In this document: positions 4,181 to 36,952 of the stretch, one piece after another
Layout of the letters: each line of letters starts with the position of its first letter
How positions within the stretch are numbered: position 1 is the stretch's first letter
Source of the DNA: Phycisphaerales bacterium
GTDB taxonomy: Bacteria > Planctomycetota > Phycisphaerae > Phycisphaerales > UBA1924
DNA length: 64,000 bases
Assembly: GCA_038231815.1 (NCBI GenBank)
Contig: JBBRKQ010000007.1
Coordinates: 1,683-65,682 of the forward strand
Reading direction: 5' to 3'
Translations under genes and position numbers: made by a program
The notes under the pieces: model-generated
The model's input: only the letters and a program-made list of their open reading frames with translations
Told to the model about the DNA's origin: nothing
Database searches by the model: none

Positions 4181-5308
4181 TTAGCAGCCTGCGGAGAACG
4201 CGTTGATGAACACGATAAAGTCGGTGCCATCGACGATTCCGTCTGAATCGAGACCATCCGGACCGCCGCCAGCGATGTCGGCTAATGAGTCGATTGACTC
4301 ATCACCCACGGCGAAACTGTTGATGAACGCGATAAAGTCCGCTCCATCGAGGATGCCGTCAAAGCGCAGTCCGTTGGGTCCGCCGCCAGCAACGTCTGCG
4401 ATAGAGCAGCGGCGCTCATCGTTTGTGGGTTCCGTACCCTCATTGCCGATTCCGGTGCGAAGGTTTGCTAAGAATACCGCGCTATCTAAGACATGATCGT
4501 TGACGTCGCCCACCTCAAAGATCAGCACATGCTCACCCGCGGTGAGCAATGCACTGGTAGTTGTGAGGTGATGGATCACGGCGTGCAGCGCTGCGAACGC
4601 TGTGTTGTGATCAGCCGTTGTTTCGAGTCCGGCGAACGAGGCACCCACCTGCACAGGCCGGTTCAGGGCATCGTGTGTGATCTGGTCGGCCGGAGCGGTA
4701 CCGTCGAGGAACACCAGGAACGCATCGGTAAATGAACTGGTGTAAATCGGATACTCCACGGTTCCGAAGATGAAATCAAACTTAATCTGTGCATCAGCGC
4801 TGAGGGTAAAGTGCACCTCGACAGCCGCGACATCGAACGAGCCGCTGAAGTTTTCAATGTTGCCCGGTGTGTTGCCGAACGCATCGAACTCAGCGGTACT
4901 GCCGGAGTCGGGGTCGGGCGCCATCTGAGAGCTCACCACTGCCGGGGGCGAGGCGGGGTCATACGCCGGATCGAGTACTTCCGGCAGCGGGCCGAGGCTG
5001 GTGACATCGCCGCTGGAAAGCACGATGCCGTCAGAGATTGACACTGGCGCGAGGTTGAAGTTGCTGTAGGTTCCGATCTGCCCCGGCATGCCGTTGCGGA
5101 TCACGATGGAGGCGATGGCCAGGCCGGCGGGCTTGAGCGCAGCGCGCAGGGTCTGGGCATCGGTCGTCACAACTGTTGAAAGCTGCCCATATGCTGATCC
5201 GGCCATGGCCAGCATCGCCACCAGACATACCCACCGACGCTGCGACTTGACCTTGAGGCTTGATGAACCTGCAATGCAGGAGACTTTGATAGATTGTGTA
5301 CCAGACAT
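4181..5308 (-). CDS. Secreted choice-of-anchor-L-like protein with a C-terminal GC-ending dockerin-like module
   Basis: ATG at 5308 is preceded by AAAGGAG. The signal peptide is WVCLVAMLAMAGSAYGQ. The passenger domain shows GIVLSSGDV ... FDVAAVEVHFTLSADAQIKFDFIFGTVEYPIYTSSFTDAFLVFLDG. The C-terminus is CSIADVAGGGPNGLRFDGILDGADFIAFINSFAVGDESIDSLADIAGGGPDGLDSDGIVDGTDFIVFINAFSAGC-stop. Confidence 0.85.
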   Translation of the reverse strand: MSGTQSIKVSCIAGSSSLKVKSQRRWVCLVAMLAMAGSAYGQLSTVVTTDAQTLRAALKPAGLAIASIVIRNGMPGQIGTYSNFNLAPVSISDGIVLSSGDVTSLGPLPEVLDPAYDPASPPAVVSSQMAPDPDSGSTAEFDAFGNTPGNIENFSGSFDVAAVEVHFTLSADAQIKFDFIFGTVEYPIYTSSFTDAFLVFLDGTAPADQITHDALNRPVQVGASFAGLETTADHNTAFAALHAVIHHLTTTSALLTAGEHVLIFEVGDVNDHVLDSAVFLANLRTGIGNEGTEPTNDERRCSIADVAGGGPNGLRFDGILDGADFIAFINSFAVGDESIDSLADIAGGGPDGLDSDGIVDGTDFIVFINAFSAGC

Positions 5309-5473
5309 GTTGACTCCTTTGACAACGTTGATCCCAGATTTGACCGGCGACGCTGACGGCCAACTGTGAAAGCGAATGCTGGTGCCGCCCACGCCGCATA
5401 CTCGGAGCCGAGGCCCATACGGCTCCGACCACGTGGTCGCGACGGCACAGCATTCTCTCTTCACATACACATA

Positions 5474-5501
5474 GTCATATCACATAGTTTTGATTGTGCA
5501 A
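5474..5501 (-). promoter_or_regulatory. Candidate sigma70-type promoter for the 4181-5308 gene
   Basis: The minus strand reads TTGCAC - 16 nt - TATGAC inside a locally AT-rich patch, about 165 nt upstream of the ATG. This is a motif match only. Confidence 0.25.
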
Positions 5502-5882
5502 GTGGTGCCAAACCGGTAGCGGATTGGTCGAACTTGCGGTGCCGGGGAAAGCCTGCCCCGCGGCATATTTTTCCCGGCAGCAGATGGGAAAGTGCCCCGC
5601 CACGATCGTGACGCGTCGCGGTTACTGCGGTAATATCAAGGGTGTTCCGGGCCGAGTGCGGGCGCTGAAGGCTGCAGAAGATACTTTGTCTCAATTGCAG
5701 TATTTCTCGATTTTGTACTGCTGGCACCCGCGTGCTCGATGCGATGGCGCCAGAATGCACCAGCGACCGATCAAGCTGGGAGTTCCGCGCGGGTAATTGC
5801 AGTGGGCCGAGAGCACGACGATTGCACCCGCATGTCTCACACGCGGGTGCACCTCCGAAGCCTGTACTATTTTATAATCCGT

Positions 5883-6809
5883 TCAGGGCCGCGTGAAAAG
5901 CCCGCGCAGATAGGGACGTGGCGTCTCGCCAGCATCCCAGAATGGCTCGATATTTCCGCGAGGTTCAAGGCCGCATTGTGTGAGCAGCTTGGTCAGTTCG
6001 CAATCCGTCATCGGGAACGGCGGACCCTCAATGTACTTGGCCGCGACGGAGGATTCATCTTCATCTGCTGGTTGCCCAGTTGCACTGGTGGGTTCTGCCG
6101 GCGCTTTGGCTCTGCACATGACCAGTGCTACGCCGCGCGGGGCGAGCAGTCGGGCGATTCCTTTGGCCGCGATTGGCTGAAGATCAGGCTCCACGGCGTC
6201 GAGCGTGTCAATTTCGATGACCAGATCAAACCTTGAAAGGAAGCGACCGGGGGGATTCATCAAATCCGCGTGAATCAGCCGGTCGGCAATCGCCGGGTGA
6301 CGGCGCGCGGCCCATTTGATTGCTGTTGGTGAGATATCAAACCCGACCACGTCATACCCGCGGCGGAAGAGTTCGACAACATCATCACCCAGTCCGCACC
6401 CCACCACCACCGCGCGGGCTCCGGGGCGCACGATGCAGCAGGCTTCCCGGTTCAACCAACTGACCAGCTGCGGGTTGGAGCGACCCACAGTCCAAGGCAC
6501 GCGCTCGGAGTCATCCTCGGCGTTGCAGTACATTGTCTCGTACCGCACCGCGGGGGTGCAGTGGTCGATCACTGATTCGGCAAATTCGCGGGCGTATCCG
6601 AGCCGGTCGGCACCAAGGATTTGTTCGGTGAGCGGCTCGCTAAGCCTGTTTGGCATGCTCTGCATGTTTGGCTCGGCAAGCACATCGGCGTGTAGCGAAC
6701 CGTCCTGCGCTGCTGTGCCGGACGAAACACCGAGCGCATCAATTGCGTCCATTGAACTGGCGTGTAGCCGCGGCTGGTCGTCAGAGATCATGGCCGATAC
6801 TCCGCGCAA
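5883..6809 (-). CDS. Class I SAM-dependent methyltransferase (TPMT-like)
   Basis: Motif I RAVVVGCGLGDDVVELFRRGYDVVGFDISPTAI, followed by FDLVIEIDTL. Confidence 0.8.
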   Translation of the reverse strand: MRGVSAMISDDQPRLHASSMDAIDALGVSSGTAAQDGSLHADVLAEPNMQSMPNRLSEPLTEQILGADRLGYAREFAESVIDHCTPAVRYETMYCNAEDDSERVPWTVGRSNPQLVSWLNREACCIVRPGARAVVVGCGLGDDVVELFRRGYDVVGFDISPTAIKWAARRHPAIADRLIHADLMNPPGRFLSRFDLVIEIDTLDAVEPDLQPIAAKGIARLLAPRGVALVMCRAKAPAEPTSATGQPADEDESSVAAKYIEGPPFPMTDCELTKLLTQCGLEPRGNIEPFWDAGETPRPYLRGLFTRP

Positions 6810-7137
6810 CGCAAGAACAGTTCGAACCCATACACAAACGCATCGGTTCTGATCGAGCTAAGACGGCAAGACTGCGGCGGATCAGAGACGAGGCGACGAG
6901 CTGACGTGGCGGCGTTGCGTTGCCACGTCCGGGGCCGAACTCTCGCAGGTCTCCAATATTGAAGTTACCTCCAAATCCGGACTATGCAAGGCTATGCGAT
7001 AGGAAATAAGCATAAACCCTTATCGCAGGCTCCACCCTATTTTTTAACCGTGGTGGGAGAGCGGTGGACAGGCGGATGATTCAGCGTCGATTAGCCCGTC
7101 CCGGGCTTTGGATGGGGCGCTTCTTCGAATCACACGT

Positions 7138-8699: not shown

Positions 8700-10508
8700 C
8701 TACTTCAGGATCGTCTTGACACGCTCAAGTCTTACGGTGGGTGTCATTCGCTGACCAGTTGCATCCACCGCGGCGAGTAGTTTTACGGTCATGACTGGAT
8801 CAGCCGCATCCGCGGTGCTCCAGCCTACACGTGCCACCGTGACTGTACCGAGAGGCAACTGCTCTGCCGGTTTGAGTGACAGTGCGGCGAGACGGAGGGG
8901 CTTTGAACTTTCGAACTCAATCTTGGCAGCGCCGGATTTGAGGTGTGCGGAATTGGCATCACGCGCATCGAAGTTCTGTGTGATAAGCGATTGACCGTAA
9001 CCAAGGGCCAACCCGAGTGAAGTACCGTCGTACTTTAATGCTTCGGCGAAGGCAAGACTGTTGCCCGACCCGACGGAGACCACGCGGACCGCTTTCCCTC
9101 GGCCAATGATCTCAATTTGATAGCCCGCTAGGGGCGTTTGATCGGTGTCGATGATGACATCAAACTGAACTTGAGTCGATGACGGGTCATCTGCAACTGG
9201 GGCCACGGCGGGTACCTTCACCAATTGGCGAAGGATCGCATCAACATCGGTTTGATTGACGACGCCATCGGCATCGATATCCCTTCGCGCGGAGGCAATC
9301 CACGATGGGCCAATCGGCGCATCATTTGATGAACGCTTTGCGGCAGCCGCCTCGGCATTGACAATCCAAGCCAACCGAAACGCATCCACTACATCAAGGG
9401 CGGGCGCTTTGGCCGCTGCTTTTTCATCAGCCCCACCTGAGCCGGGTTTGGCCACAGCCTCATCCTGGCGATTGGCCGGAGGGACCGGAACGTTTTGGGC
9501 GCCGGGCGGCAAGGCTGCGCCCGTTGTGCCACCCGATCCACCGGCGGCGGGAGCATTTGCCGAAGTGCCACCGGTCGATGCGGGCCCGGCTAACCGGCCG
9601 GCTGGCGCGGCAGCAGTGGGCGCCTGTTGGGGCGACGCGGCATCACCTGCTTCGCTCCGAGAAAGCTGTTGGGTTGCAGGCTGGGTTTGTGTCGTTACTG
9701 GTGCCGGAGGTGTCTGAGGGCTGGCCCCGGAGGGTGCTTGAGAAGGCCCCTGAGAGGGCCCCTGAGAAGGCCCCTGAGAAGGCCCCTGAGAGGAGACAGC
9801 TTGGTCGACTGGGGCGGGCGGCGGTTCGGATGATGCTGAAAACCCTTTGGTGTTCGCCGCGGCATCGGACATTGCTGGGGTGCCGGCAGGAGCAGACCCA
9901 AGCCCCGGCACTGACGGCTGACCGAATCGCGGATTTTCAATATTGCCTGAGAGTTTGCTTGGCCCACCGGCGGTGTCGGCATCTGCCGCGGGCATCCCGT
10001 CTGCGGCACTTTCCTCTTGGCTCTGCTTGCGAGAAGCGCCACCGGGGGATGAACGCCCTCGCCCGAAGGTAGTCGCATCGGTTGGTGAGGCCTTGCCGAT
10101 GAGCACTGTCCGGTCTTTGGCTGCGCCAGACTCCGCTGTAACACCAGTGACCGCTAGCCCGCCAAGGCCACCGGTTGTAGACAGGAGTATCCACGCGCTC
10201 ACCACGAGCGCCAGGCTAGCAGCCAACCCCGCAGCGAGCGGGAGACGAACGCGGCGATGCTGCCGCGTGGTTGATGCTCGCGACGCTGAGGCTGCCTGGC
10301 CTGCGGCGGCCATGACCGAAGCTGCCGCGGAGAGTACCTGACGGTCATAGTCGGCGGGAACCAGGGGAGCTTTGCCGTAGATGTCCTGTAATTCGAGCTG
10401 CACATGGGCGGGCAAGGCTTCCAGCGCGATCGGTTGCTCCCCGGCATCGGAGGGCAATTTAGACCCTTTGGAGGTGCCGTTGTTCGGAATGGGCGACGGT
10501 TCAGCCAT
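8700..10508 (-). CDS. Single-pass membrane protein with a long Pro/Ala/Gly/Ser-rich stalk, a dockerin-like loop and a cohesin-like C-terminal beta domain
   Basis: 602-aa ORF. The TM segment is LPLAAGLAASLALVVSAWILL, near residue 100. It has a (GPSQ)n repeat. It has DIDADGVVNQTDVDAILRQLV. The C-terminal ~165 aa begin VQFDVIIDTDQTPLAGYQIEIIGRGKAVRVVSVGSGNSL. Confidence 0.75.
   Translation of the reverse strand: MAEPSPIPNNGTSKGSKLPSDAGEQPIALEALPAHVQLELQDIYGKAPLVPADYDRQVLSAAASVMAAAGQAASASRASTTRQHRRVRLPLAAGLAASLALVVSAWILLSTTGGLGGLAVTGVTAESGAAKDRTVLIGKASPTDATTFGRGRSSPGGASRKQSQEESAADGMPAADADTAGGPSKLSGNIENPRFGQPSVPGLGSAPAGTPAMSDAAANTKGFSASSEPPPAPVDQAVSSQGPSQGPSQGPSQGPSQAPSGASPQTPPAPVTTQTQPATQQLSRSEAGDAASPQQAPTAAAPAGRLAGPASTGGTSANAPAAGGSGGTTGAALPPGAQNVPVPPANRQDEAVAKPGSGGADEKAAAKAPALDVVDAFRLAWIVNAEAAAAKRSSNDAPIGPSWIASARRDIDADGVVNQTDVDAILRQLVKVPAVAPVADDPSSTQVQFDVIIDTDQTPLAGYQIEIIGRGKAVRVVSVGSGNSLAFAEALKYDGTSLGLALGYGQSLITQNFDARDANSAHLKSGAAKIEFESSKPLRLAALSLKPAEQLPLGTVTVARVGWSTADAADPVMTVKLLAAVDATGQRMTPTVRLERVKTILK
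9738..9793. repeat. In-frame 12-nt tandem repeat (about 4.5 units) encoding (GPSQ)n
   Basis: The plus strand reads gagaaggcccct / gagagggcccct / gagaaggcccct / gagaaggcccct. The minus-strand translation is SQGPSQGPSQGPSQGPSQAPS. Confidence 0.8.
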
Positions 10509-11142: not shown

Positions 11143-12897
11143 ATGAAACGTATATTCGCACTTCTAGCAGTTGCTGGCATTGCCATGGCAGCCCAGGCCC
11201 AAACGGGTCGGCTGTTTGTGGGTGAGTACGGCTACGACGCAGCCAACTTGCCGACATGCTTTGAGACTGACCTGTCGCCAGGCTTCCCCGGGACGGTGTC
11301 GTGGGCGGCAACGTTTCCGTTTGCGGTGCAAGGCGCCGCATGCACACCGGGAAATGTGATTTACCTGAGCACGGGGACGTTTACCACGGATTTGTACACG
11401 ACGTTTCCGGGGCGGACCCCGACGCGTGTGGCACAGACTTCCGAAACGATCTTTGACATGGGGTACGTGGGCGGGAAGCTGTACGGATGGGCTGAGTACG
11501 CCACACCGTCGGGCATTTACGAGATCAACACCACGACCGGGCAGTGCACGCTTGCGGTAGCATCCACCAGTGAGTTGTTCTTTGCGCTCGATGGCAACCC
11601 GGCCAACGGTCTTCTGTACGGCTACAGCGAGTACGGCAATTCGGGCCTGTACTCGATCAACCCGGTGACCGGGGCCAAGCACAAGATTGCCAACGGGCCC
11701 TATGGCCAGTTCCCCAACGCCTACGGCATGTATCGCGGGCTGGCGGTTGGCAACAACACCGTGTACCTAACTAACGTGTGGAACGGTCGCGCACTTGATG
11801 ACCCGGACCACATTCCTTCGGACTCGTTTTATGCGTACAACTTGGGCCAGGGGGACAACGGCACCTACGTGCAATTTGAGAATCCGTATGCCAATTCAAC
11901 GCCCGTCGGTGGCGGATCGTTCTGGTACGACCCATCGGTGATTCCGGTCTTGCCAACGCCAGCCAACGACCTGTGCGCGAACGCCACGCCGATTGGTGAG
12001 GGTACTTTCGCGTTTGACACCACGTGGGCCAACACCGAAGGCAGCGCGAGCTGCGGTGCTGGCGGTGTTGGCGACGTCTTTTTCCGCTACACCCCAACGT
12101 TCACGCACTATGCGCAGTTCTCGACCGGGGCCGCCGGTTCACTCGACACGGTACTGACACTCTACACGGGCTGCGATGGCACCGAGATTGCCTGCAACGA
12201 TGACGGCGCGAGTAATGCCCCGCTCAGTGAGATCGGCTACACGGTGACAGCGGGTGTGCCCATCCTCATCCGCATTGCGGGCTATGACGAGGCGGCCCGC
12301 GGTCCCGGCACGCTGAACATTGGCCTGTGCCCCCCGGCGACTATTAGCCGCCAGCCGGACAACGCGACGATTAACAGTTGCACTGCCACGCTGCCGTCGG
12401 ACTTCAGTCAGGGGCCGTTCTTTGTTCGCTTCTTTGCCGACCTGGCCGGTGGCGACACAGTGAACTATCAGTGGGAGAAAGACGGCGTGCCGATGAGCGA
12501 CAACAACGATGGCAACATCGAGCATTACGGAATCTACAACACGCGCGGCTTTGCGCTGCTGATTGTTCGGCCCACCGTAGCGGATGCGGGCACGTACCGC
12601 TGCGTGATGAGCACCACGGCGTGCGATGAGCAGTTTAACTTCACCAGCAACAGCGCCACGATGACGTTCGTGCCGAAGTGCTCCATCGCTGATGTCGCAC
12701 CCGTGGCCAACTGCGGTGACGGCATCGTCGATGGCTCAGACTTTATCGCGTTCATCAACAGCTTTGGCGTGGGTGATGTGGCGATTGATCGGCTGGCCGA
12801 TATCGCTGGTGGCGGGACCGATGGGCTCTCTCCCGATGGCATCATCGATGGCAATGACTTTGTCGCGTTCATCAACGCGTTCTCAGCAGGGTGTTAA
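11143..12897 (+). CDS. Secreted protein with repeat/propeller-like, PPC-like and Ig-like modules and a C-terminal GC-ending dockerin-like module
   Basis: RBS aaaaGGAGttagagatcATG. The signal peptide is MKRIFALLAVAGIAMAAQAQ. A PPC-like module is present (NDLCANATPIGEGTFAFDT..DTVLTLYTGCDGTEIACNDD). An Ig-like module is present (VNYQWEKDGVPM..DAGTYRCVMS). The C-terminus is CSIADVAPVANCGDGIVDGSDFIAFINSFGVGDVAIDRLADIAGGGTDGLSPDGIIDGNDFVAFINAFSAGC-stop. Confidence 0.9.
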   Translation: MKRIFALLAVAGIAMAAQAQTGRLFVGEYGYDAANLPTCFETDLSPGFPGTVSWAATFPFAVQGAACTPGNVIYLSTGTFTTDLYTTFPGRTPTRVAQTSETIFDMGYVGGKLYGWAEYATPSGIYEINTTTGQCTLAVASTSELFFALDGNPANGLLYGYSEYGNSGLYSINPVTGAKHKIANGPYGQFPNAYGMYRGLAVGNNTVYLTNVWNGRALDDPDHIPSDSFYAYNLGQGDNGTYVQFENPYANSTPVGGGSFWYDPSVIPVLPTPANDLCANATPIGEGTFAFDTTWANTEGSASCGAGGVGDVFFRYTPTFTHYAQFSTGAAGSLDTVLTLYTGCDGTEIACNDDGASNAPLSEIGYTVTAGVPILIRIAGYDEAARGPGTLNIGLCPPATISRQPDNATINSCTATLPSDFSQGPFFVRFFADLAGGDTVNYQWEKDGVPMSDNNDGNIEHYGIYNTRGFALLIVRPTVADAGTYRCVMSTTACDEQFNFTSNSATMTFVPKCSIADVAPVANCGDGIVDGSDFIAFINSFGVGDVAIDRLADIAGGGTDGLSPDGIIDGNDFVAFINAFSAGC

Positions 12898-24466: not shown

Positions 24467-24490
24467 TCTTTTTCAACCTGAGTAAAGAAC

Positions 24491-24841
24491 TTACTTCTTC
24501 TTCTCATCCTTCTTGGGGGTACCGGCGGCGGCGCGGTTGATCACGCCCTGCTTCTTGGCCTCGATGCGCCATGCGTGGCGCTTCTTCCACTCGGTCCCAT
24601 CAACCACTGCGGTGCGGACGAGCATGTCCATGATCGTCTCGCTGGGCTGGGCGCCCTTGGCAAGCCAGAACTTGACCCGCTCAACATTGAGTTCGTGCTG
24701 CTTTGCATCGCTGGAGCAGGGATCGTACCAGCCCAAGTTTTCAATCACATCGCCATCGCGCTTCACGCGAGAATCAACCACATTAATGCGGTAGAACGGA
24801 CGGTGCGGACGACCCATGCGCTTCATGCGAATCTTAACCAC
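24491..24841 (-). CDS. rpsP: 30S ribosomal protein S16 with a Lys-rich C-terminal extension
   Basis: VVKIRMKRMGRPHRPFYRINVVDSRVKRDGDVIENLGWYDP. GTG start at 24841 with GGAG 9 nt upstream. The ORF-track start at 25201 is a spurious extension. Confidence 0.9.
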   Translation of the reverse strand: MVKIRMKRMGRPHRPFYRINVVDSRVKRDGDVIENLGWYDPCSSDAKQHELNVERVKFWLAKGAQPSETIMDMLVRTAVVDGTEWKKRHAWRIEAKKQGVINRAAAGTPKKDEKKK

Positions 24842-25437
24842 GTGCGAAATCTCCAATGAACCAGCAAATGCTGGGTCGGGATGATAGCCGCCTGCCGCGG
24901 CTTTGCCTAGCGATTGCCAGACTTGTGTGCGACCCAGCGGGACAAATGCATATACTTCGCACCATGCATGCACATGCTGACGCGGGGAGGATGATACCCG
25001 GCTGCCGCATGCCAGCCACAACCTGGGCCACAACTTGGGCCAAAAGTTGGGGTTGGGTTTGTTTGCGTTTAACGAGGCACCCGCCGGAGAACGACTGACG
25101 AGGCCCCAACGGGGGGCGATAGCGGAGGACAACTGCCGCGGCGAGAAGAGTTGTCGCACAACTTGGTGGAACAGGTCAAGACCTACTCGATTCACACCCA
25201 CTTGCCCGCTAACCTTGTCCCCTGCCCAAATTGGCCTTCAAAGGGGTGCGGAACCGAACAGGTTCCGATTCATCACCCGGCCGGTATTTCGCGGAAAACA
25301 GGCCGCGCCAGAAGCGGCCTGTTGCAGTTGACAGTATCGCCTCGACGTGTTCTGGTATCTTTAGTAGTTTCGGGCAGCCGCCGCACCCAAATGTGATGCC
25401 GCTGCGTTTTACAAGTCTCTTGCCAAGGAAAGTTACC

Positions 25438-27012
<1,575 letters not shown>

Positions 27013-27375: not shown

Positions 27376-28177
27376 GTGCTGAGCCAGACGGCGCTGGTGA
27401 CACTAGGCGGTGGGTTGACGATATCGCAGCAGCCACTGCCAGTCGCGGTTTGCCGCGGAGCGCCGGAGACGCTGAGCGTTGCCACTTCGCTCGCGGGGAG
27501 CACCTCCCGATGGCGTTGCGGGACAGTGAATCTGCTCGACGGTTGGATCATCAGCGGTGCTGGCACTGCCACGCTAATGATCATCAGTGTGACCCAAGGT
27601 GATGGGGCGGCGGGCTACAACAGCGTGATCACCAACAATTGTGACAGCGTCACGAGCAGCAACGCTGCGGTAACTGGGACGCCGGGCGTGACGATCACGA
27701 TGAATCCCAACAACGCGAGCGTGTGCCAGGGTCAGGACGCAGGCTTTCGCGTGAGCACCGCCGGCGCGGGCACGCCGCGCTACCGGTGGCGGCTCAAGAG
27801 CACGCTGATCAACGCTTAGCTGGCTCGGCAACGCTGAGCCTGACCGGCGTGACGACGGTCGATGCGGGGAGTTACGACTGCATGGTCACAGGAACCTGCG
27901 GCAGCGTGACCAGCACCACGGCAATACTGGCAGTGAAGTCCTACCGCGCATGCTCGCTGGCGGACATCGTCGGAGGCGGAAGCGACGGTAGCCGACCTGA
28001 CGGCATCGTTGATGGGAATGAAGTTGTCGCATCTGTCAACAGCTTCAGCGTTGGCGATACCACCATTGATGCTCTGCCGGGGATAGCTGGGAGCGGGGCG
28101 GATGTACTCAGCGGTGATGGCATCATCGATGGCAAGACTTCATCGCGTTCATCAACGCGTTCGCCGCGGGCTGCTAA
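27376..28177 (+). pseudogene. Decayed member of the GC-ending dockerin-like family (Ig-like modules plus a degraded dockerin-like tail)
   Basis: There is no signal peptide or start. Frame 1 has Ig-like modules that end at TAG 27817-27819 (..TPRYRWRLKSTLINA*). The homologous reading continues in another frame (LAGSATLSLTGVTTVDAGSYDCMVTGTCGS..CSLADIVGGGSDG..). A 1-nt deletion near 28135 (aag-ac-ttc instead of aag gac ttc) breaks the terminal DFIAFINAFAAGC-taa, which is still readable at 28136-28177. Confidence 0.7.
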
Positions 28178-28784
28178 GTTTCTGTTGGCGGACATGCACG
28201 GTTCTCTATTATCAAACTTTGATGTGCACAACGGAAGCCGAGCGAGACAGCGTGTGACGCGAATTGTCTGAGCGAAAGACGTGGGATAAACAACATCGCA
28301 CGCTCAACCGTCCCGGAACATGGTTGCAAAGCTTGCATCTGCGGTCAGAACGGTTTTCGATCTCCGCTCATGGCCACAAGTTGCCCGAACTGGATGTTTT
28401 TATGCCTCCTTCTGCAAGGTTTTCTGACTTTGTGGCAAGTCACAGCAGAAAGCCACCTTAACTCATCCAGGCCACGCCATGAACCACTGCCAGATTCCCA
28501 CGAGCATCCCGACTGCACGAATGACTGGTGAATCCAGTGATCCTTCCAAGAGCCGTCAGCCCTTGCCGACGCTCGTTCAGCCACCGATCGCTGTTACCAC
28601 AAACGGCACCGGATTACCGCCCCGCTTCGCTAGCATTATCGGACTGCTCTTGTCGCAAACTCGAGAGCTTGCGCAGCATCTCGTCCTTCGCGGGTCCCAA
28701 GCTGTTCGATTGGAGGTACTGCGACGCCAGATGATCATTTCTAAGCAGTTGGCAATATCACCTCTATGGGGTATGTTGTACAGC

Positions 28785-31676
28785 ATGAAGACGCACGCCA
28801 GAATGGCTTGTCCGGCTCCATCCGCCTTTCCGATCAGGATATTGGGCAGGGTGCGAAGCACTCTAAGTCTAACGCTCGGAGCGATCGCGGCGCTCGGGAC
28901 AGTGGTAGGGGTCGCTTCTGCACAGACGATTATTCCGATCGCACCGATAGCCGGAGGCTCAATTTCCCGGGCGGCGGCGGTGAACGCCACCGGCACGGCG
29001 GCGGCTGGCTACTCCGACAACGTATCCAGCGCGGACCGTGCCATCCGTTGGCAGTTTCCTGCTTCAACGACGAACATGGGACTGGTGCCGGGCGGCGTGT
29101 TTGGCTCCTACGCCGTGGCCATCGATTCCACGGGGCAGATCCTGGCCGGGTACGGCGACTCGGGCAGCTCTCGCGCGTTTCGCTGGGTCAATGGAAGTGG
29201 ATACCAGCTCCTGCCCCTCGTAACGGGCACGGGCAGCTACAGCCAAGCGTTTGGCATCAGCCAGAGCGGCGCTGTGGTGGTTGGCACCAGTGGGTTCGGC
29301 CCGGCGGCGCGTGCGTTCTATTGGATCTCAAGCACACCGGGCAGCTCGCTGAACCTTGGTGTGCTGGCGGGGCAGACGACTTCTGGGGCCGCGGCGGTCA
29401 GCGGCGACGGCACGGCGGTTGTGGGCTCGAGCGGGACGCGGGCCTTTCACTGGACCAGCGGTGGAGGCATGACCGACCTTGGCTCACTGCCCGGTCAAGT
29501 GAGGGCCTTGGGCGAAGCGGTGAACACCAACGGAACCGTCATCACCGGGCGTTACAACAACGGGAGCGAGTTCGGCTATCGTTGGACACAAGCCACCGGC
29601 ATGGTGGCCCTGCCGCAGACGCCAAACGGCTGCACAGCGCTGCGGCCACGGGCGATCAACGGCGATGGCTCGCTGATTATCGGCCAAGTGGTGGACAACG
29701 TCGCGGGCTTTACCGCCTTCGTATGGACGCCGGCCATGGGGTCCCAACTACTGGCCAATCACCTGCAGGCCCGCGGCGTGAACCTGACGGGCTGGCAGAT
29801 CAGCGATGCGACGGGCATCAGCGCCGACGGTTCGGCGATGTGCGGCAACGGGCTGTACAACGGCAGCCCCGTGGGTTGGGTGGTTCGCGGGCTGAGGTGC
29901 CCGACAAACTTTAGTGAAATCATCCCGTTCGCTGGATGGGCCTGCATCGGCAGCGACGGCACGATCGCGACTAGCTTCGTGACGTCACCTGGGGTATCGG
30001 TCCGCTGGTGGCGGAACGGGGTACTGCTCGCGAACGGACTGCAGCCCTCGGGCTCGACCATCAGCGGCGCGACGGCGACCGCGCTGCAAATCACGAACAT
30101 GCAGCTGGGGGATGCCGGGAACTATCAGGTTGGAATCAGCGATCAGGGGGCGTGTGAGACGATCACTTCGACGTACTTCTCCGGGCCCACCAGCGCGCCC
30201 AGCATCGTCTCACAACCCTCTGCGAACACCGCGTGTCAGGGTCAGAATCCGAGTTTGTTTTGTGCCGCCACCGCGGCCACGGGCACCGTGACGTACGGCT
30301 GGCAGAAGTTTGTCGGCCCGCCCACCAACGCGTTTGTAGACCTCGCCGACGGTGCCACAGGCAACGGCAGCACGTATGCCGGCACCGGCACCACGACGTT
30401 CTCGATCATCAGCGCGCAGCCCGCCGATAGCGGTACGTACCGCTGCATGCTGGGCAACAGGCACTGCTTTGGGGTGCCGCAGGCATACTCAAATGCCGTG
30501 CCCTTTACGATCACTCCTACGGCTCTTGCCGTCACTGGGCCGAGCGAGTCGTATCAGTGCACCGGCGACAACGATGCGTTCATTTCCGTGTCTGTTGTTC
30601 CGGCTACCGGCTGCACCTACAAGTGGCAGAAGTTCGGCGGGCCATTTGTCGTCCCGTATTTCGATATCAACGACGGTCCGACTGGCAACGGCGGGTTTTT
30701 CGGTCAGACCAACACGGCCACGCTGGGCGTATATTCGTTTAACCCTGGCGAGTTTAACTTCTATCGCTGCCGCGTAACCGGACCGTGCGGACAGGTTGTT
30801 TTCAGCAATCCGATCTATCTTGGCGGAGTCGGTCCTGTGGCGATTGTCACGAATCCGAGCAATGTTTCGATCTGCCCCGGCGATGACGATATCTCGTTTT
30901 CCGTCACGGCCACGCCGGGAGCCACGTTTCAGTGGCAGAAGTTCTACGGCGCGCCAACCAACGCCTGGTTCAACATCTCCAACGGACCCACAGGTAACGG
31001 CGGCAACTACGGCCAGACCAACACCGCCACCATGGGCATCTACGGCATCGGCACCGGCGACTACGGCCAGTACCGCTGTGTCGTCAGCGAGCCGTGCTTC
31101 TTCTCTACCGCCATCAGCCTGCCAGCGAGCCTTCTGCCCCCGGGCCCACCGCCCGTTACATCACAGCCAACCGGCGGCCCTGTGAACATCGGCGCTACCA
31201 AAGTTCTGACGGTTGTTGCGACGGGTGTAACGACTTACCAGTGGTGGAGGTACGTGCCCGCGTTCCCAATTTATGCACAAGTCGGCAACGGGTCGTTGCC
31301 GAGCGGCGCAATCGTGACTGGCGCGACAGGGCCCACACTGACAATCTCCAACTTCCAAGCCCAGGATGCGGGCCAGTACTACTGCAAGCTCATCAGCGAG
31401 TGTAACTTCGGCTTCTCGGCGGTTGTTACGCTGACCGTGGGCATCGCGTGCTCAATCGCGGACATCGCTGGTGGCGGGCCCAACGGCGATCAGCCCGATG
31501 GAATCCTTGACGGATCGGATTTTGTTGCGTTCATAAACTCGTTTTCCACAGGCGATGTGAATGTCGATCCGCGGGCAGACATCGTTGGCGGTGGCCCGAA
31601 CGGCTTGGACCCGGACGGGATCATCGATGGCTCCGACTTCATCGCGTTCATCAACGCATTCGCCGCGGGTTGCTGA
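28785..31676 (+). CDS. Secreted HAF-repeat protein with five Ig-like modules and a C-terminal GC-ending dockerin-like module (tandem copy 1)
   Basis: The signal peptide starts at the internal Met (MKTHARM..LTLGAIAALGTVVGVASAQ). HAF-type repeats are present (RAFRW, RAFYW, RAFHWTSGGGMTDLGSLPG). Five W-x-K/R...Y-x-C Ig-like units follow. The C-terminus is CSIADIAGGGPNGDQPDGILDGSDFVAFINSFSTGDVNVDPRADIVGGGPNGLDPDGIIDGSDFIAFINAFAAGC-stop. Confidence 0.9.
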   Translation: MKTHARMACPAPSAFPIRILGRVRSTLSLTLGAIAALGTVVGVASAQTIIPIAPIAGGSISRAAAVNATGTAAAGYSDNVSSADRAIRWQFPASTTNMGLVPGGVFGSYAVAIDSTGQILAGYGDSGSSRAFRWVNGSGYQLLPLVTGTGSYSQAFGISQSGAVVVGTSGFGPAARAFYWISSTPGSSLNLGVLAGQTTSGAAAVSGDGTAVVGSSGTRAFHWTSGGGMTDLGSLPGQVRALGEAVNTNGTVITGRYNNGSEFGYRWTQATGMVALPQTPNGCTALRPRAINGDGSLIIGQVVDNVAGFTAFVWTPAMGSQLLANHLQARGVNLTGWQISDATGISADGSAMCGNGLYNGSPVGWVVRGLRCPTNFSEIIPFAGWACIGSDGTIATSFVTSPGVSVRWWRNGVLLANGLQPSGSTISGATATALQITNMQLGDAGNYQVGISDQGACETITSTYFSGPTSAPSIVSQPSANTACQGQNPSLFCAATAATGTVTYGWQKFVGPPTNAFVDLADGATGNGSTYAGTGTTTFSIISAQPADSGTYRCMLGNRHCFGVPQAYSNAVPFTITPTALAVTGPSESYQCTGDNDAFISVSVVPATGCTYKWQKFGGPFVVPYFDINDGPTGNGGFFGQTNTATLGVYSFNPGEFNFYRCRVTGPCGQVVFSNPIYLGGVGPVAIVTNPSNVSICPGDDDISFSVTATPGATFQWQKFYGAPTNAWFNISNGPTGNGGNYGQTNTATMGIYGIGTGDYGQYRCVVSEPCFFSTAISLPASLLPPGPPPVTSQPTGGPVNIGATKVLTVVATGVTTYQWWRYVPAFPIYAQVGNGSLPSGAIVTGATGPTLTISNFQAQDAGQYYCKLISECNFGFSAVVTLTVGIACSIADIAGGGPNGDQPDGILDGSDFVAFINSFSTGDVNVDPRADIVGGGPNGLDPDGIIDGSDFIAFINAFAAGC

Positions 31677-32276
31677 GTTTGCCTTCGGCGGGCCTGCGGT
31701 GTTGTCCGCTATCAAACTCGGAAGTGCGCTGTTACGTCCAAGCGAAACAAAATGCCGCATGCGGTCTCCGAGCTGAATGCCTGGGATACACAGACCGGCA
31801 CGATCAAACCTTCTGGCGCTGCGTTTCAAGGTTGGCAAACATGGTCCGTACGGAATCCGATCGCCGCCGCGCTCACAATTGAGTTGAGGTGAAACTTTTG
31901 GTCCGCCTGCAAGGTTTTGAAACTTGGTGGCAAGTCGCAGAAGAAAGCGACTTTTACTCCGCAAGGCCACACCATGAACAACTGCCAAACCCCGATGAGC
32001 ATTCCGTGCGAGCGTCCGAAGGCTGAGGCCTGTGGCTTAGGCCCAAACCGCCAGACGACGCTGGCGGCTGGACACCCCCACTCCGTTGCACCAAATGGCA
32101 CCGGTGCGTCGCCCCATCCCGCTGAAGTTATCAGACCTTTAGCTTCCATACTGGGCTGGTTGTCTCGGCAACCTGCTCGGCAGGATTCGCAACCCATGTG
32201 TGCGACGACCGACCAATTCCCGGCCAACATCACGATACCGGTGGCAATATCTCCGCTTTGGAGTATCTTGAACACC

Positions 32277-35177
32277 ATGAAAGCTCAGCGCACCTCCGGC
32301 AACTTCACATTGAAAACTTTTATCCCGCGGCGGCTGTCCGGCGTGCGCGGGATGATCGGGCTGGTCTGCGGCGTTGCAGCGTTTGCGGCAAACCCCACGT
32401 CTGCACAAACAATTACTGTTGTGCCTGCCTTCCCCGGCGGCAGCAGCTCAGTGGTTTACGCGGTTAACTCCACTGGCACCGCCGCGGCGGGGTACTCAAA
32501 CAATGCGGGCGGTACCGACACTGGCCTTCGCTGGTTTACGCCCGGTGGCGGGTCGGGGAACATGGGGTTCCTGCCAGGTGGCGGGCTTAACTCTTACGCG
32601 CAGGCGATGGATGCATCGGGCACGGCGCTGGCGGGGTATGGCGATTCATTTGGCAACACACGCGCGTTCCGCGCGACGACGAGCTTTGGCTTTGAGGTGC
32701 TGCCGCTGGTTCCCGGCACTGGCAACTTTGCGACGGCCTCGGGCATCAGCGCTGCGGGCACGCGGGTTGTGGGCACGGGCGGCGTTGGGTCGCTCGCAAG
32801 AGCATTTCTGTGGGATCTGTCAAACCCGACGGTGAGCTTAAATCTTGGCGTAATTTCTGGACAGACCACCTCCGGCGCGAGGGCGATCAGCGGAGATGGC
32901 ACGGTGGTGGTTGGCTCCAGCGGCCCGCTGGCGTTTCGGTGGACATCGGCCGGTGGCATGCAGAGCTTGGGCACACCGCTGCCCGGGCAGGTTTGGGCCC
33001 TTGGCGAAGCGGCCAACACAAACGGATCGGTAATTACGGGGCGCTACAGCAACGGTAATGAACTGGGGTATCGCTGGACCGCGGCAACGGGCATGGTCGC
33101 GCTGCCGCAATCTCCGGGCGGTTCGGCTGCACTGCGGCCGCGGGCGGTAAACGGCGACGGCACCGTCATCATCGGCCAGGTGGTGGACAATGTCGCGGGG
33201 TTCACTGCATTCGTATGGACACCGTCGCTGGGGACGCAACTCCTGCCGGCCCACCTTTCAGCCCGCGGCGTGAACATGACCGGCTGGCAGATCACCGATG
33301 CAACGGGCATCAGTGCTGACGGCACGGCGATGTGTGGCAACGGATTTTTTAACGGCCTGCCGCGGGGCTGGGTGGTGCGTGGGCTGCCCTGTGCAGCGGT
33401 TGCAGGAATCGGCTGGGGCAACCCCACCGGTTGCCTCGGCTCGGGCGCGAGTTTTGGCTCTAACACAAGCTTTGTGGTCGGAGCGGTATACCGCTGGGCC
33501 CGCAACGGTGTGATTCTCAATGATGGAGTCCAGCCGTCGGGTTCGGTGCTGAGCGGCGCGACAACAACGCAGATGACCATGACCAACATGCAGCCGGGGG
33601 ATGCGGGCAACTACACGTTCTCGATGAGCAGCCAAGGCGCGTGTGAGTCGACCATTTCAACTTTCTTCCCCGGGCCGACGAACGCGGCCAACATTGTGGT
33701 GCAGCCAACACCAAACACGGCGTGCCAAGGGCAAAACCCGGCGCTGTTTTGTGCGGCCAACACTCCGAATGGCAGTGTGACGTATCGCTGGCAGAAGTTT
33801 GTCGGCCCCGGGCTTGGAACCTATGCGAACATCGTTGATGGCCCAAGCGGCAACGGCAGTTCATACGTGGGCACAGGCACATCCACGTTCTCGATTCTAA
33901 ACGCCCAGACGGCTGACTCCACACTCTACCGCTGCGCGGTCGGCCACGCTTTCTGTGGTCCAACACCACAGGTCTATTCGGTAGCGGTTCAGTTTACCAT
34001 CACGCCAGCAGCACCCACGGTGACTGGCCCAGGTAACTCGTATCAGTGCGGCGGTGACAACGATGCGTTTATGGGCGTGACAACGGTGCCCGCCGCGGGC
34101 TGCACGTATCGCTGGCAGAAGTACATCGGCCCGGGCATCAACTCATACGCCGATATCTTCGATGGCCCGACCGGCAACGGGGGCTTCTTCGGTCAGACCA
34201 ATAGCGCGGTTCTTGGTGTCTACAGCTTTTCCGCGGCAGAGGCGAACAATTACCGCTGCCGCGTCACGGGCCCGTGCGGCGGGGTGACGATCAGTAGTTC
34301 GGGGTACCTTGGCGTGATCCCGCCTGCGGCGATCATCACCAACCCAAGCAATGCTGCGATTTGCCCGGGAGACAACGACATCAATTTCAGCGTTACGGCG
34401 ACGCCCGGGGTGAGCTATCGGTGGCAGAAGTATGTCGGTCGGCCGGTGTTTAACTTTGTAAACATCTTTGATGGCCCCACGGGCAACGGGGGCAATTACG
34501 GGCAAACCGGAACCGCGGTGATGGGGATCTACGGCGTGTATGCCGGTGACTACACCCAGTATCGCTGCGTGGTGACAGACCCCTGCTATTTGGCTGTAGC
34601 CACCAGCGCACCGGCAACTCTGGTCACACTGAACGCACCGGTTGTAGCGACCCAGCCGGTGGGCGGAGCGGTCGGCATCGGCGGAACCAAGGTGCTGACA
34701 TTTACGCTTGTGCCCAGTGGCAACGGCAATATCACGTACCAGTGGTGGAGGTATGTTGCGGCTTTCCCGATCTACGTACCGCTGGGCAACGGCGTGCTCC
34801 CGAGCGGCGCGGTGATCAACGGTGCGCAGAGCCCAACGCTGACGATCAGCAACTTCCAGTCGCAGGATGCGGGTCAGTACTACTGCATGATCATCGGTGA
34901 CTGCAACAGCGGGCCGACTGCGGTAGCAACGCTCACTGCCGGGGTCGCATGTTCAATCGCGGATATCTCCGGCGGCGGACCCAACGGCGATCAGCCGGAT
35001 GGAATCCTGGATGGCTCGGACTTCATCGCGTTTATTAACTCATTCTCGACCGGTGATGTGAATGTTGATCCGCGGGCCGACATCGTTGGCGGTGGTCCGA
35101 ACGGCCTGGACCCGGATGGGATCATCGATGGCTCAGACTTCATCGCGTTCATTAACGCGTTCTCGGCTGGCTGCTAA
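32277..35177 (+). CDS. Secreted HAF-repeat protein with Ig-like modules and a C-terminal GC-ending dockerin-like module (tandem copy 2)
   Basis: It is collinear with 28785-31676. The signal peptide starts at MKAQRTS..GLVCGVAAFAANPTSAQ. It has the same HAF and Ig-like architecture. The C-terminus is CSIADISGGGPNGDQPDGILDGSDFIAFINSFSTGDVNVDPRADIVGGGPNGLDPDGIIDGSDFIAFINAFSAGC-stop. Confidence 0.9.
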   Translation: MKAQRTSGNFTLKTFIPRRLSGVRGMIGLVCGVAAFAANPTSAQTITVVPAFPGGSSSVVYAVNSTGTAAAGYSNNAGGTDTGLRWFTPGGGSGNMGFLPGGGLNSYAQAMDASGTALAGYGDSFGNTRAFRATTSFGFEVLPLVPGTGNFATASGISAAGTRVVGTGGVGSLARAFLWDLSNPTVSLNLGVISGQTTSGARAISGDGTVVVGSSGPLAFRWTSAGGMQSLGTPLPGQVWALGEAANTNGSVITGRYSNGNELGYRWTAATGMVALPQSPGGSAALRPRAVNGDGTVIIGQVVDNVAGFTAFVWTPSLGTQLLPAHLSARGVNMTGWQITDATGISADGTAMCGNGFFNGLPRGWVVRGLPCAAVAGIGWGNPTGCLGSGASFGSNTSFVVGAVYRWARNGVILNDGVQPSGSVLSGATTTQMTMTNMQPGDAGNYTFSMSSQGACESTISTFFPGPTNAANIVVQPTPNTACQGQNPALFCAANTPNGSVTYRWQKFVGPGLGTYANIVDGPSGNGSSYVGTGTSTFSILNAQTADSTLYRCAVGHAFCGPTPQVYSVAVQFTITPAAPTVTGPGNSYQCGGDNDAFMGVTTVPAAGCTYRWQKYIGPGINSYADIFDGPTGNGGFFGQTNSAVLGVYSFSAAEANNYRCRVTGPCGGVTISSSGYLGVIPPAAIITNPSNAAICPGDNDINFSVTATPGVSYRWQKYVGRPVFNFVNIFDGPTGNGGNYGQTGTAVMGIYGVYAGDYTQYRCVVTDPCYLAVATSAPATLVTLNAPVVATQPVGGAVGIGGTKVLTFTLVPSGNGNITYQWWRYVAAFPIYVPLGNGVLPSGAVINGAQSPTLTISNFQSQDAGQYYCMIIGDCNSGPTAVATLTAGVACSIADISGGGPNGDQPDGILDGSDFIAFINSFSTGDVNVDPRADIVGGGPNGLDPDGIIDGSDFIAFINAFSAGC

Positions 35178-35222
35178 ATTCTTGCTCGACTTCAATTCAA
35201 GTGACACCGCTTGGGTTGATCC

Positions 35223-35258
35223 AGAGCGGCTCCGCAATTGCGGAGCCGCTCTTTTTTA
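35223..35258 (+). terminator. Strong rho-independent terminator ending the tandem array
   Basis: Stem agagcggctccgc / gcggagccgctct with loop aatt, followed by TTTTTT. Confidence 0.85.
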
Positions 35259-35623
35259 TCCTGGTTACACGTCACCTTGGCGGGTAGAGTGGCGGTAGTT
35301 TGTGTTGCGAAGATTGCCCTGCCGAGAACGAAAAAACCGCCAAAGCTCTGGCATTTTCGGATTATTGCGTCGGCTACCAATTCCTAGGTCGTCACTCCAA
35401 TATATCAACCGGCTCCGCCAAGTTCGCCCGCACGCTAGCCTCATACGGACTTTGATCGATCAAATGCGGCTGGCTTTTTCGACCGAGCTAGCGAAGGAAA
35501 TGTGTCTCTGCCCAAAGCGACATGCGGACGACTTGGGCTGCTCGCCATCAGACCCAGCGGTGCCTCGCTTGTTTGCTTCTCGCTCACAATGAAGTGCGAC
35601 TATTGGTACGAAGGAGATTCCCG

Positions 35624-36952
35624 ATGCCCCTTGTCCACCCCCGCGATGCGTGCTCATTACTTGTTCTCGCGCTGGCCATCACCGGCACGGCGCTGCCCGC
35701 CCTGGCCGATCCGGTGGGTCATGACTGCGTGCTCTGGCTCAAAGCCGATGCGGGCGTGACAACCGACGGTGGCGGCCGGGTCACCGCGGCGACCGACTTT
35801 TCTGGCACTGGCAATCACGCGAGCGTTGGGGTGGGCTCTGGACCACTGCTTGTACCAGCCGCGCTTAATGGATTGCCGGTGATGCGCTTCGATGGAAACT
35901 GGCTAAACCTGGCTGGGCAGGTGCTTTCAAGCCAGCAGTTCACCATCGTCGCCGTCGTCAATGACACCCGGCGCGAGGGCTCCTTTCATGAGGTCTTCTC
36001 AAACTGGACCTTTGGTAACACCCTCTCATCAGTTTTCTTTGGCACGACGGCGTTAGATCCCGGCGGGCCAGACACCACCCGTGCGCGGCTGACCGATGAT
36101 GTGGGCGGAGCGAACCAAGGCCAGACCGGAGTAGGAGTCGTCACCAACCGCTCCTCGCACTTTATCTTCTCGGGCATCAGCCGCACAAACAACGCTGAGG
36201 TGTTCCAGAATCGAACACTGATCGCAAGTTCCGCCGCACCGATTAGTACAAGAAATCTTGCCCCGCCATACGTAATAGGCCGTCAAGGACCGATCAGTGA
36301 ATTCTGGACTGGGGACATCGCGGAAATTTTGATTTACAATACCGCTCTCTCACGGTGCGAGCTTGATACTGTGTACGACTACTTCAACGGCCGCTACGGG
36401 CTTGCCAACTGCCTGCCCGTCCTGACCTCGCAGCCGACCGACCAAATCGCTTGCCAGCGCGGCACAGTGCGGCTTGCAGTAACGGCCGCTGGTGGGCTGT
36501 GCAATAGCAACTTTACGTACCGTTGGTCAAAGGGTGGCATGCCGCTAAATGATGGGAACATGGGCACAAGCACAATCAGCGGCGCTGTAACCCGGGAGCT
36601 ACTGATCACCAATTTCTCGGGAGCGGCCGCGGGGTCATACCGCTGCGCGGTGGCAAACAGTTGCGGTACCGTCACCAGCAACCCGGCCACGATTGCGCTC
36701 GGGGCAAGCTGCTCGCTGGCGGACATCGTCGGCACAGTCAGCGGCTCACCAACAGGACCACTGCTTTGCCCGGACGGCCTGGTAGACGGAGCAGATTTTA
36801 TCGCGTTCATCAACAGCTTCAGCGTTGGGGACCCGGCAATTGATGCCCTCGCGGATGTCGCCGGTGGTGGCCCTGATGGACTCTGGCCAGATGGAATCAT
36901 CGACGGCGCTGATTTCATTGCGTTTATCAACGCCTTCTCGGCTGGCTGCTGA
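35624..36952 (+). CDS. Secreted LamG-like / Ig-like protein with a variant C-terminal GC-ending dockerin-like module
   Basis: RBS gaAGGAGattcccgATG. The signal peptide is LLVLALAITGTALPALADP. The LamG-like region runs LWLKADAGV..LNGLPVMRFDG..GDIAEILIYNTALS. An Ig-like module is present (FTYRWSKGGMPL..AAGSYRCAVANSCG). The C-terminus is CSLADIVGTVSGSPTGPLLCPDGLVDGADFIAFINSFSVGDPAIDALADVAGGGPDGLWPDGIIDGADFIAFINAFSAGC-stop. Confidence 0.9.
   Translation: MPLVHPRDACSLLVLALAITGTALPALADPVGHDCVLWLKADAGVTTDGGGRVTAATDFSGTGNHASVGVGSGPLLVPAALNGLPVMRFDGNWLNLAGQVLSSQQFTIVAVVNDTRREGSFHEVFSNWTFGNTLSSVFFGTTALDPGGPDTTRARLTDDVGGANQGQTGVGVVTNRSSHFIFSGISRTNNAEVFQNRTLIASSAAPISTRNLAPPYVIGRQGPISEFWTGDIAEILIYNTALSRCELDTVYDYFNGRYGLANCLPVLTSQPTDQIACQRGTVRLAVTAAGGLCNSNFTYRWSKGGMPLNDGNMGTSTISGAVTRELLITNFSGAAAGSYRCAVANSCGTVTSNPATIALGASCSLADIVGTVSGSPTGPLLCPDGLVDGADFIAFINSFSVGDPAIDALADVAGGGPDGLWPDGIIDGADFIAFINAFSAGC

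Follow-up and report, generated by a model that had tools for sequence, protein, structure and literature searches.

The stretch of DNA analysed here, referred to as the window, comprises 64 kb of a Phycisphaerales bacterium contig (JBBRKQ010000007.1, assembly GCA_038231815.1) and encodes several otherwise unrelated secreted proteins that end in the same C-terminal module of ~75 residues, bracketed by two cysteines of which the second is the last residue of the protein. When all six reading frames of the window were searched with a hidden Markov model (HMM) built from five intact modules, exactly six matches were found, five intact and one frameshifted, with E-values of 1e-35 to 1e-43 for the intact copies and 2e-20 for the decayed one. 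No further copy is present in the window, including the region from 37 to 64 kb; the next-best match had E > 2 compared with 2e-20 or better for the six, which puts the recurrence far beyond chance. On translation, all five intact open reading frames (ORFs) terminate F-I-N-A-F-[SA]-A-G-C-stop. A previous sequence-only reading of this DNA had claimed six occurrences of an internally duplicated module that always opens and closes with Cys. The translations and the six-frame search bear out the number of copies, both cysteines are found in every intact window copy, and the duplication is evident by direct reading in the ~70% identity between the halves of module 3.

Gene 1 (4181-5470, minus strand) encodes a choice-of-anchor-L protein (choice_anch_L NF038133, 69 bits), with its module at 4184-4408 and its stop codon at 4181-4183; the probable start Met is at 5308, with a signal peptide that reads ...VCLVAMLAMAGSAYGQ. 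Gene 2 (11143-12897, plus strand; module 12679-12894) encodes a secreted protein of 584 residues whose passenger region gave sub-threshold matches only, to Ig, GBD_T9SS_assoc (galactose-binding-like) and DUF4394; an exact copy of this protein occurs in NCBI/Logan, together with six near-identical metagenome copies. Gene 3 (28479-31676, plus strand; module 31449-31673) combines HAF repeats (HAF_rpt, 38 bits) with Ig_3 repeats (87 bits), and its probable true start is an internal Met at 28785 (MKTHARM...), leading a signal peptide that ends in VGVASAQ. The Ig_3 protein encoded by gene 4 (31917-35177, plus strand; module 34950-35174; probable start at the internal Met 32277) is a tandem paralog of gene 3, with 32-77% identity over the passenger and 87% in the last block. 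The ~100 codons 5' of the start Met in genes 3 and 4 (28428-28784 and 31893-32276) are open in frame and similar to one another (...GKSQQKATLTHPGHAMNHCQIP... versus ...GKSQKKATFTPQGHTMNNCQTP...), indicating that the duplication took in the 5' leader or promoter region. Gene 5 (35522-36952, plus strand; module 36710-36949) encodes a Laminin_G_3 (35 bits) and Ig-like protein that probably starts at the internal Met 35624.

All five intact proteins carry an N-terminal basic-hydrophobic-AxA/AQ segment which, in a heuristic reading, is consistent with a Sec signal peptide, in line with the claim that every intact copy would have one. The passengers had been predicted from the translations as well, and most of those predictions stand: choice-of-anchor L in gene 1, HAF repeats plus Ig-like domains in gene 3, Ig-like domains in gene 4, and LamG plus Ig-like in gene 5. 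For gene 2, the sub-threshold Ig match lends weak support to the Ig-like part of the prediction, and its 'PPC-like' part was not borne out.

The sixth copy belongs to a locus at 27685-28177 (plus strand) composed of Ig-like fragments at 27685-27789 and 27837-27935, a decayed module at 27951-28136 and a shifted tail at 28136-28177. The decayed module opens at 27951 (CSLADIV...) and matches positions 1-62 of our HMM, with the conserved DGxDFxAFINSF replaced by DGNEVVASVNSF; following a 1-nt deletion near 28134, the +2 frame still reads DFIAFINAFAAGC and then a stop, ending at 28177. Because the upstream Ig-like fragments sit in separate ORFs and the frame is shifted, we read 27685-28177 as a pseudogene, the remnant of a module-bearing paralog. 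In a setting of housekeeping genes, the five intact copies and one pseudogene make the window a clean, well-populated example of the family to which these tails belong.

That family is NCBIfam NF041540 (dockerin_GC), which the five intact window proteins match over the full 67 positions of the model at 50.2-60.2 bits (51.3 for gene 1, at residues 357-429, and 50.2, 59.2, 60.2 and 57.2 for genes 2 to 5, respectively). The curated cutoff is 29 bits; the decayed copy, at 16.5 bits, falls under it, and all 79 full-length public relatives tested lie above it. Scores this far above the cutoff indicate that the family assignment is correct and, judged by them, the window tails are ordinary members of NF041540, the 'GC-type dockerin domain-anchored protein' family, the label that the sequence-only reading had put forward. 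The same reading knew of no experimental description of the module, and consistent with this, 'GC-type dockerin' was not found in a full-text search of about 8 million papers and preprints. The family has thus been named by curators and is experimentally uncharacterised; the loop insertion, the co-variation of the cysteines and the presence of more than 100 copies per genome, all described below, are additions to what its name conveys.

A profile search of 1.84 billion representative proteins returned 1874 matches at E ≤ 1e-3 and 367 at E ≤ 1e-10, and in nearly all of the best 150 representatives the match runs to the last residue. Gly-Cys forms the terminus in 137 of 142 new representatives, the exceptions having 1-9 extra residues or, in one case, ending in GY. 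A scan across species, in which 185,579 species were represented by one genome each, returned 75 loci, all from a single lake metagenome-assembled genome (MAG), ErkenSummer_bin-5518; the part of this MAG that was examined amounts to ~0.73 Mb, about 15-20% of one genome. These loci hold 106 distinct module-bearing ORFs, and two or more module genes are found at 26 of 73 loci. The terminus is GC-stop in 99 of the 106, while three end in GCD or GCES (1-2 extra residues), one in GG and one in IG; of the remaining two copies, one is cut by a contig end and the other is internal. Dozens to hundreds of dockerin copies are typical of cellulosome producers, and the more than 100 copies of this MAG are comparable. 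The window modules are at best 77% identical to those of the species representatives, so the genome from which the window comes is not one of these. SdhA and SdhB of the window are 86% and 82% identical to their MAG counterparts, with gene order kept, and the counterpart of genes 3 and 4 is 66-68% identical; on the strength of these comparisons, the source genome of the window is a close relative of ErkenSummer_bin-5518.

Internal copies devoid of the terminal Gly-Cys, which the sequence-only reading had listed as evidence that would speak against an anchoring tail, are represented by one case among 107 copies of the related MAG. This copy (locus L073, 4329-5945) has neither cysteine and ends ...AFAIGD; its host is an RHS/YD-repeat protein, in which it comes shortly before the DPLGY core-end motif. 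As the sole internal copy is also one without either Cys, it qualifies the C-terminal rule and does not refute it.

An AlphaFold2 model of the module, computed from a 25-sequence alignment (pLDDT 93.6, pTM 0.81), has helices at residues 22-34 and 61-73, a loop with small beta-bridges before each, and a short linker helix. The predicted topology (loop-helix, linker, loop-helix) is that of dockerins. Each half reads A-D, an 8-residue Gly-rich insertion, and D-G-x-[IV]-D-G-x-D, followed by F-I-A-F-I-N-[SA]-F. Invariant alignment columns are D17, D21, D24, D44, D60, D63, F25, F28, I29, N30, F64, F67, N69 and G74, and D5 and D56 are conserved at 90% or more. Aligned to short-loop relatives such as ADVNGDGVIDGGDF, which read as canonical 12-residue loops, the conserved Asp residues correspond to ligand positions 1, 5, 9 and 12 of EF-hands and dockerins. 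In the window copies and most relatives, the 8-residue insertion (GGGPxGxxP) lies between loop positions 1-3 and position 5, and the modal spacing from D1 to D5 is 11, as found in 90 of 220 first loops and 143 of 220 second loops; just 31 first loops and 15 second loops of the 220 have the canonical spacing of 3. We infer that the module binds Ca2+.

The insertion accounts for the failure of the window tails to match Pfam Dockerin_1. At relaxed thresholds, Dockerin_1 matched 16 of 25 family modules (best E 1.3e-6), EF-hand_1 matched 14 (best E 8.4e-5) and EF-hand_6 matched 12, and one short-loop fragment (P0021) bears a precomputed PF00404 annotation. The doubled EF-hand/dockerin-like loop-helix arrangement previously proposed from the translations is therefore supported from three sides, by the AlphaFold2 model, by the invariant Asp residues, and by the Dockerin_1 and EF-hand matches of short-loop relatives. 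The helices are strongly conserved, with DFIAFINSF of the first repeat identical in 141 of 220 modules and DFIAFINAF of the second likewise in 141 of 220. Non-tandem modules of the window share only 64-76% DNA identity, and the tandem pair, modules 3 and 4, differ by 27 synonymous and 3 nonsynonymous codon changes; the low identity and the synonymous excess argue that helix conservation reflects purifying selection and not recent copying.

Type I dockerins (PF00404; for example C. thermocellum Xyn10B, PDB 1OHZ chain B) resemble the module in their tandem Ca-loop and helix 'F-hand', in the Asp residues at loop positions 1, 5, 9 and 12, in their C-terminal position on secreted enzymes and in their many copies per genome. 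The near-symmetry of the two halves, which in dockerins is the basis of a dual binding mode, is also shared. Unlike type I dockerins, the module has the Gly-rich loop insertion (spacing 11 versus 3), a Cys...Cys bracket and a protein end at Cys; its helices are hydrophobic and lack the Ser-Thr and Lys-Arg recognition pairs, and its host is a diderm planctomycete relative rather than a Gram-positive anaerobe, with no cohesin found in the sequence examined. Similarity to type II X-module-dockerins, in which an Ig-like X module buttresses the dockerin, lies in an Ig-like domain positioned just before the leading Cys and in a weak best structural match to a type II complex; not every protein has such a domain (gene 1 is without it), and the resemblance reaches neither structural nor sequence significance.

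The two cysteines occupy fixed positions, one three (sometimes two) residues ahead of the Ala-Asp with which Ca loop 1 begins, the other as the last residue. Both were present in 210 of 219 cleanly parsed modules. Six modules were scored as having the terminal Cys only, but four of these scores are anchoring artefacts, arising in modules with three repeats or a very long loop. Among complete modules without the terminal Cys, L059 and L061 lack both residues, and P0158, which ends in GY, retains only a Cys at the non-standard position -6. Co-occurrence of the two cysteines gave p = 0.0035 in Fisher's test on an automated 2x2 table of the 219 modules, in which loss events are few. In solved dockerins, an 'intramolecular clasp' joins residues -3 to -1 before Ca loop 1 to the C-terminus, and its mutation lowers stability and weakens cohesin binding ~10-fold (Slutzki et al. 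2013, PMC3821032). The clasps listed in that study are all non-covalent (Trp-Pro stacking, Glu-Arg and Tyr-Lys), with no disulfide mentioned. The module would fit this arrangement, as its leading Cys is at -3 (or -2) and could pair with the C-terminal Cys; because both cysteines sit in the clasp segments and disappear together, we propose that the module is closed by a disulfide clasp, which, unlike those of known dockerins, would be covalent. As judged by this co-variation, the leading and terminal Cys most likely form a disulfide.

Secreted thiol-disulfide oxidoreductase-like proteins are encoded in the window at 46511-47557 and 2192-3082 (both plus strand), the one a double thioredoxin/DsbH-like protein and the other an AhpC/TSA protein with an N-terminal extension. 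A further AhpC/TSA protein, with a signal peptide and a (PAA)n linker, is encoded in the MAG (L023, 5512-7077, minus strand). Such generic proteins could be relevant to disulfides in exported proteins.

The range of cargo was surveyed in the 79 full-length relatives. Their passengers include Ig_3/I-set domains (26), Rax2/Kelch propellers (13), delta-60 repeats (8), HAF repeats (5), DNRLRE (3) and M12B reprolysins (3), as well as choice-of-anchor X, C and Q, LamG, and enzymes such as S8 proteases, M1 aminopeptidases and GH16 glycanases. A signal-peptide-like N-terminus was found in 52 of 79 relatives, compared with 8 of 79 for an internal control. Only a few residues separate the leading Cys from the end of an Ig-like domain in four of the five window proteins, in the pseudogene and in some one fifth to one third of relatives. 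HAF and choice-of-anchor domains had been cited as families usually attached to interchangeable C-terminal tails, and their appearance across the family (choice-of-anchor L, X, C and Q) is consistent with that argument. We interpret the module as a putative anchoring element. One MAG protein (L015, 2316-5219) has canonical dockerin-type repeats, DVNLDGSVNAADLAII and DLNGDGLVNQADRDIL, directly upstream of a GC-type module, so that two flavours of dockerin would be combined in one polypeptide, as in adaptor scaffoldins.

Non-cellulosomal cohesin/dockerin assemblies with M12B peptidase cargo, termed the 'planctosome', have been proposed for freshwater Phycisphaerae (Nemodlikiaceae), in which 0-6 dockerins and 0-1 cohesins per MAG were detected by dbCAN (Andrei et al. 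2019, PMC6461901). GC-dockerin passengers, too, include M12B reprolysins, and GC-dockerin relatives come from lake metagenomes. The GC terminus, the Cys pair and the loop insertion are not described in the planctosome study.

Taken as a whole, the module may act as a Ca2+-dependent, disulfide-clasped, dockerin-like tail that tethers many secreted proteins to one shared receptor of the cell envelope, a mechanism that we favour while giving it about an even chance of being correct. Cargo bearing the C-terminal double loop-helix module would be exported by Sec, and the fold of the module would depend on Ca2+. Outside the cytoplasm, the Cys before loop 1 and the C-terminal Cys would join as a disulfide that covalently closes the N- and C-termini of the module, in place of the non-covalent clasp by which cellulosomal dockerins are stabilised. 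The two near-identical, conserved helices would then present one common binding surface, through which diverse cargo, from adhesin-like Ig, HAF and Kelch repeats to proteases and glycanases, could be tethered to a single receptor, the whole working like a cellulosome or planctosome display system. We infer both the existence of this receptor and its location.

Several results weigh against this mechanism, starting with the dockerin identity of the window copies. None of the five window proteins has a Pfam Dockerin_1 match at E ≤ 0.01, module 3 has none at E ≤ 10, and no Pfam model reaches the window tails. A Foldseek search of the PDB with the predicted structure, which is that of a small domain, was not significant (best match 5K39_B, from a type II dockerin complex, E 4.2, TM 0.38). 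Single-sequence and profile searches of the PDB yielded sub-threshold EF-hands only (polcalcin, E 0.2) and no dockerin, and hhalign placed the module in register with three solved dockerins, with the insertion inside the loop, at a probability of 1%. Dockerin kinship of the window copies is accordingly supported by transitive comparison and by the curated name, and not by direct significance. The pairing of the cysteines is complicated by a third Cys shortly ahead of the D-G in loop 1 in 40 of 219 modules (~18%). In this variant of loop 1, the GGGPxG insertion is replaced and a Cys directly precedes [GP]-D-G; it is seen in gene 2 (VANCGDG) and in the longer first loop of gene 5 (LLCPDG). The odd number of cysteines in these modules implies that one thiol is unpaired or that the pairing is different.

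The remaining difficulties concern the partner. Neither a cohesin nor a plausible processing enzyme was found in the 64-kb window, where the module genes are accompanied by housekeeping genes, a lipopolysaccharide heptosyltransferase gene and a type II secretion system F gene, and the ~0.73 Mb examined of the related MAG likewise yielded no cohesin-like partner or processing enzyme. A profile built from three CipA (clostridial) cohesins of the PDB, which is narrow and of low power, found nothing in ~0.8 Mb of ORFs. Ten large secreted or membrane-anchored MAG proteins that lack the module showed no cohesin by Pfam, five of them having no match at all, and the contexts of two other family members contain housekeeping and glycan genes and no cohesin. 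The host is diderm, and no outer-membrane export route specific to module proteins is evident.

The absence of a cohesin-like gene from the sequence examined would be expected if the module had no receptor at all and served instead as a Ca2+-triggered folding nucleus after export, as a means of homo- or hetero-oligomerisation of the cargo, or as a domain that binds envelope glycans directly. By direct reading, the helices are unusually hydrophobic (FIAFINAF) and could favour self-association, and the one Cys-less copy inside the RHS protein is not terminal. Dockerin-like modules outside cellulosomes for which no cohesin can be identified are, moreover, said to be widespread, as Peer et al. are cited in the planctosome study (PMC6461901). 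We consider a receptor-less module unlikely nonetheless. The helices are near-identical across more than 100 paralogs and across genomes, suggesting one external partner and not mere folding, and a strictly C-terminal position on secreted proteins that are otherwise unrelated is what targeting or anchoring modules typically show; the search for a partner was also of low power, having used a clostridial profile on ~15-20% of one genome.

A second alternative takes the terminal Cys as the reactive handle of a covalent anchoring or sorting tag, joined by an intermolecular disulfide or thioether or modified enzymatically, such that the module would be the substrate end of a system like those of sortase, exosortase or the type IX secretion system (T9SS). 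The extreme constraint on Cys as the very last residue fits this idea, as do the three-Cys modules, in which one residue is left unpaired, and the more than 100 unrelated cargo proteins per genome recall known sorting-signal regimes. The module indeed resembles C-terminal sorting domains in being a shared tag on unrelated secreted proteins, with HAF and choice-of-anchor passengers among them. The joint loss of the leading and terminal Cys, in contrast, is what an intramolecular pair would show. By direct reading, the module also lacks the transmembrane helix and the basic tail that, together with a motif, make up PEP-CTERM, LPXTG and GlyGly-CTERM signals; it ends in Gly-Cys right after an amphipathic helix. 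The C-terminal domain of T9SS substrates is a beta-sandwich of ~80-100 residues, whereas the module is predicted to form two helices and loops, and it has no match to a T9SS C-terminal domain family. The window yielded no cognate processing enzyme of the exosortase, sortase or rhombosortase kind. A rhomboid-family intramembrane protease is encoded at 38711-39991 (plus strand), 1.8 kb downstream of the final module gene, and was rejected as a rhombosortase, scoring 33 bits where the cutoff is 84; it is also far under the GlpG equivalog cutoff. It is a generic rhomboid, and its proximity to the module genes is probably coincidental.

The same idea draws on a set of FGE-sulfatase-like proteins, members of a formylglycine-generating, Cys-modifying enzyme family, with five paralogs immediately upstream of a module subclass in the MAG and one protein that itself carries the module. 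The five are encoded at L039 975-2138, L052 78-1319, L058 2164-3408, L072 5596-6795 and L073 3117-4325. Module genes beside the L039, L052 and L058 copies belong to a subclass in which the leading Cys lies ~9 residues before the loop (GGCxIGGNxNPADV). The L073 copy is followed by the RHS protein whose internal module lacks both cysteines, and for L072 a module gene downstream could not be resolved; the FGE-like protein of L075 (93-815) itself has a GC tail. Set against this link, no FGE-like gene is present in the window, and the association covers about five of more than 100 module genes. FGE-like proteins are in any case common in planctomycetes. Overall, we regard a covalent tag as quite improbable. 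Still less probable, in our estimate, is a reading that starts from the three-Cys modules, about one in five, in which one thiol must be free: the terminal Cys would be linked to an envelope receptor by a disulfide or an enzymatically made bond, giving a covalently locked dockerin-type display, not described before, of over 100 cargo proteins per cell in uncultured Planctomycetota, with possible help from the adjacent FGE-like proteins in one subclass.

The remaining alternative arose from an orphan protein of 602 residues (8700-10508, minus strand) whose gene divergently adjoins gene 2. It has one transmembrane helix (residues 89-112), a ~300-residue linker rich in Pro, Ala, Ser and Gln with SQGP repeats, a conventional dockerin-type loop and helix (DIDADGVVNQTDVDAILRQL) and a beta-rich C-terminal domain of ~150 residues. 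The loop-helix matched type I dockerins of the PDB at E 0.016-0.04 and Pfam Dockerin_1 at E 0.12. As a cohesin-bearing receptor the protein is unsupported, since its C-terminus has no Pfam match, an AlphaFold pLDDT of 48 and no meaningful Foldseek match; it has no homologs in public proteins or in the related MAG, and so cannot be the conserved receptor of a family found in many genomes. That module proteins are kept in the enlarged planctomycete periplasm, docked to inner-membrane proteins with long linkers such as this one, is very improbable on these grounds, even though a disulfide-containing module is compatible with the periplasm and the apparent want of a dedicated outer-membrane route would suit it.

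Two other families stand beside module genes in the MAG. Family A, considered as a possible partner, consists of paralogs with N_methyl (prepilin N-methylation motif) and DUF1559, a combination that is a hallmark of Planctomycetota, and was rejected; its presence points to a planctomycete origin, probably among freshwater Phycisphaerae-like bacteria. Family B comprises five paralogs of 415-624 residues that match no Pfam family and show no obvious signal peptide (L019 2075-3430, L020 1213-2457, L030 230-1684, L056 1998-3869 and L065 6910-8205, all on the minus strand) and is absent from the window. Four of its members are divergent and just upstream of module genes, and the L065 copy lies ~1.8 kb downstream of one. 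Elsewhere in the window, atpA (25231-27012) is not flanked by other ATP-synthase genes; long N-terminal extensions are seen in its longest ORF and in the S16 ORF (24491-25201). No Rfam family matched either strand of the window at gathering thresholds.

If more than 100 secreted proteins are indeed docked to one receptor through this tail, it would be the main protein-display system of abundant, uncultured lake planctomycetes. Cohesin-dockerin-type assembly would then extend to diderms and to non-cellulolytic roles, including adhesion and the degradation of peptides and glycans. A natural disulfide-clasped dockerin with extended Ca loops would also be of interest for designer cellulosomes and protein scaffolds.

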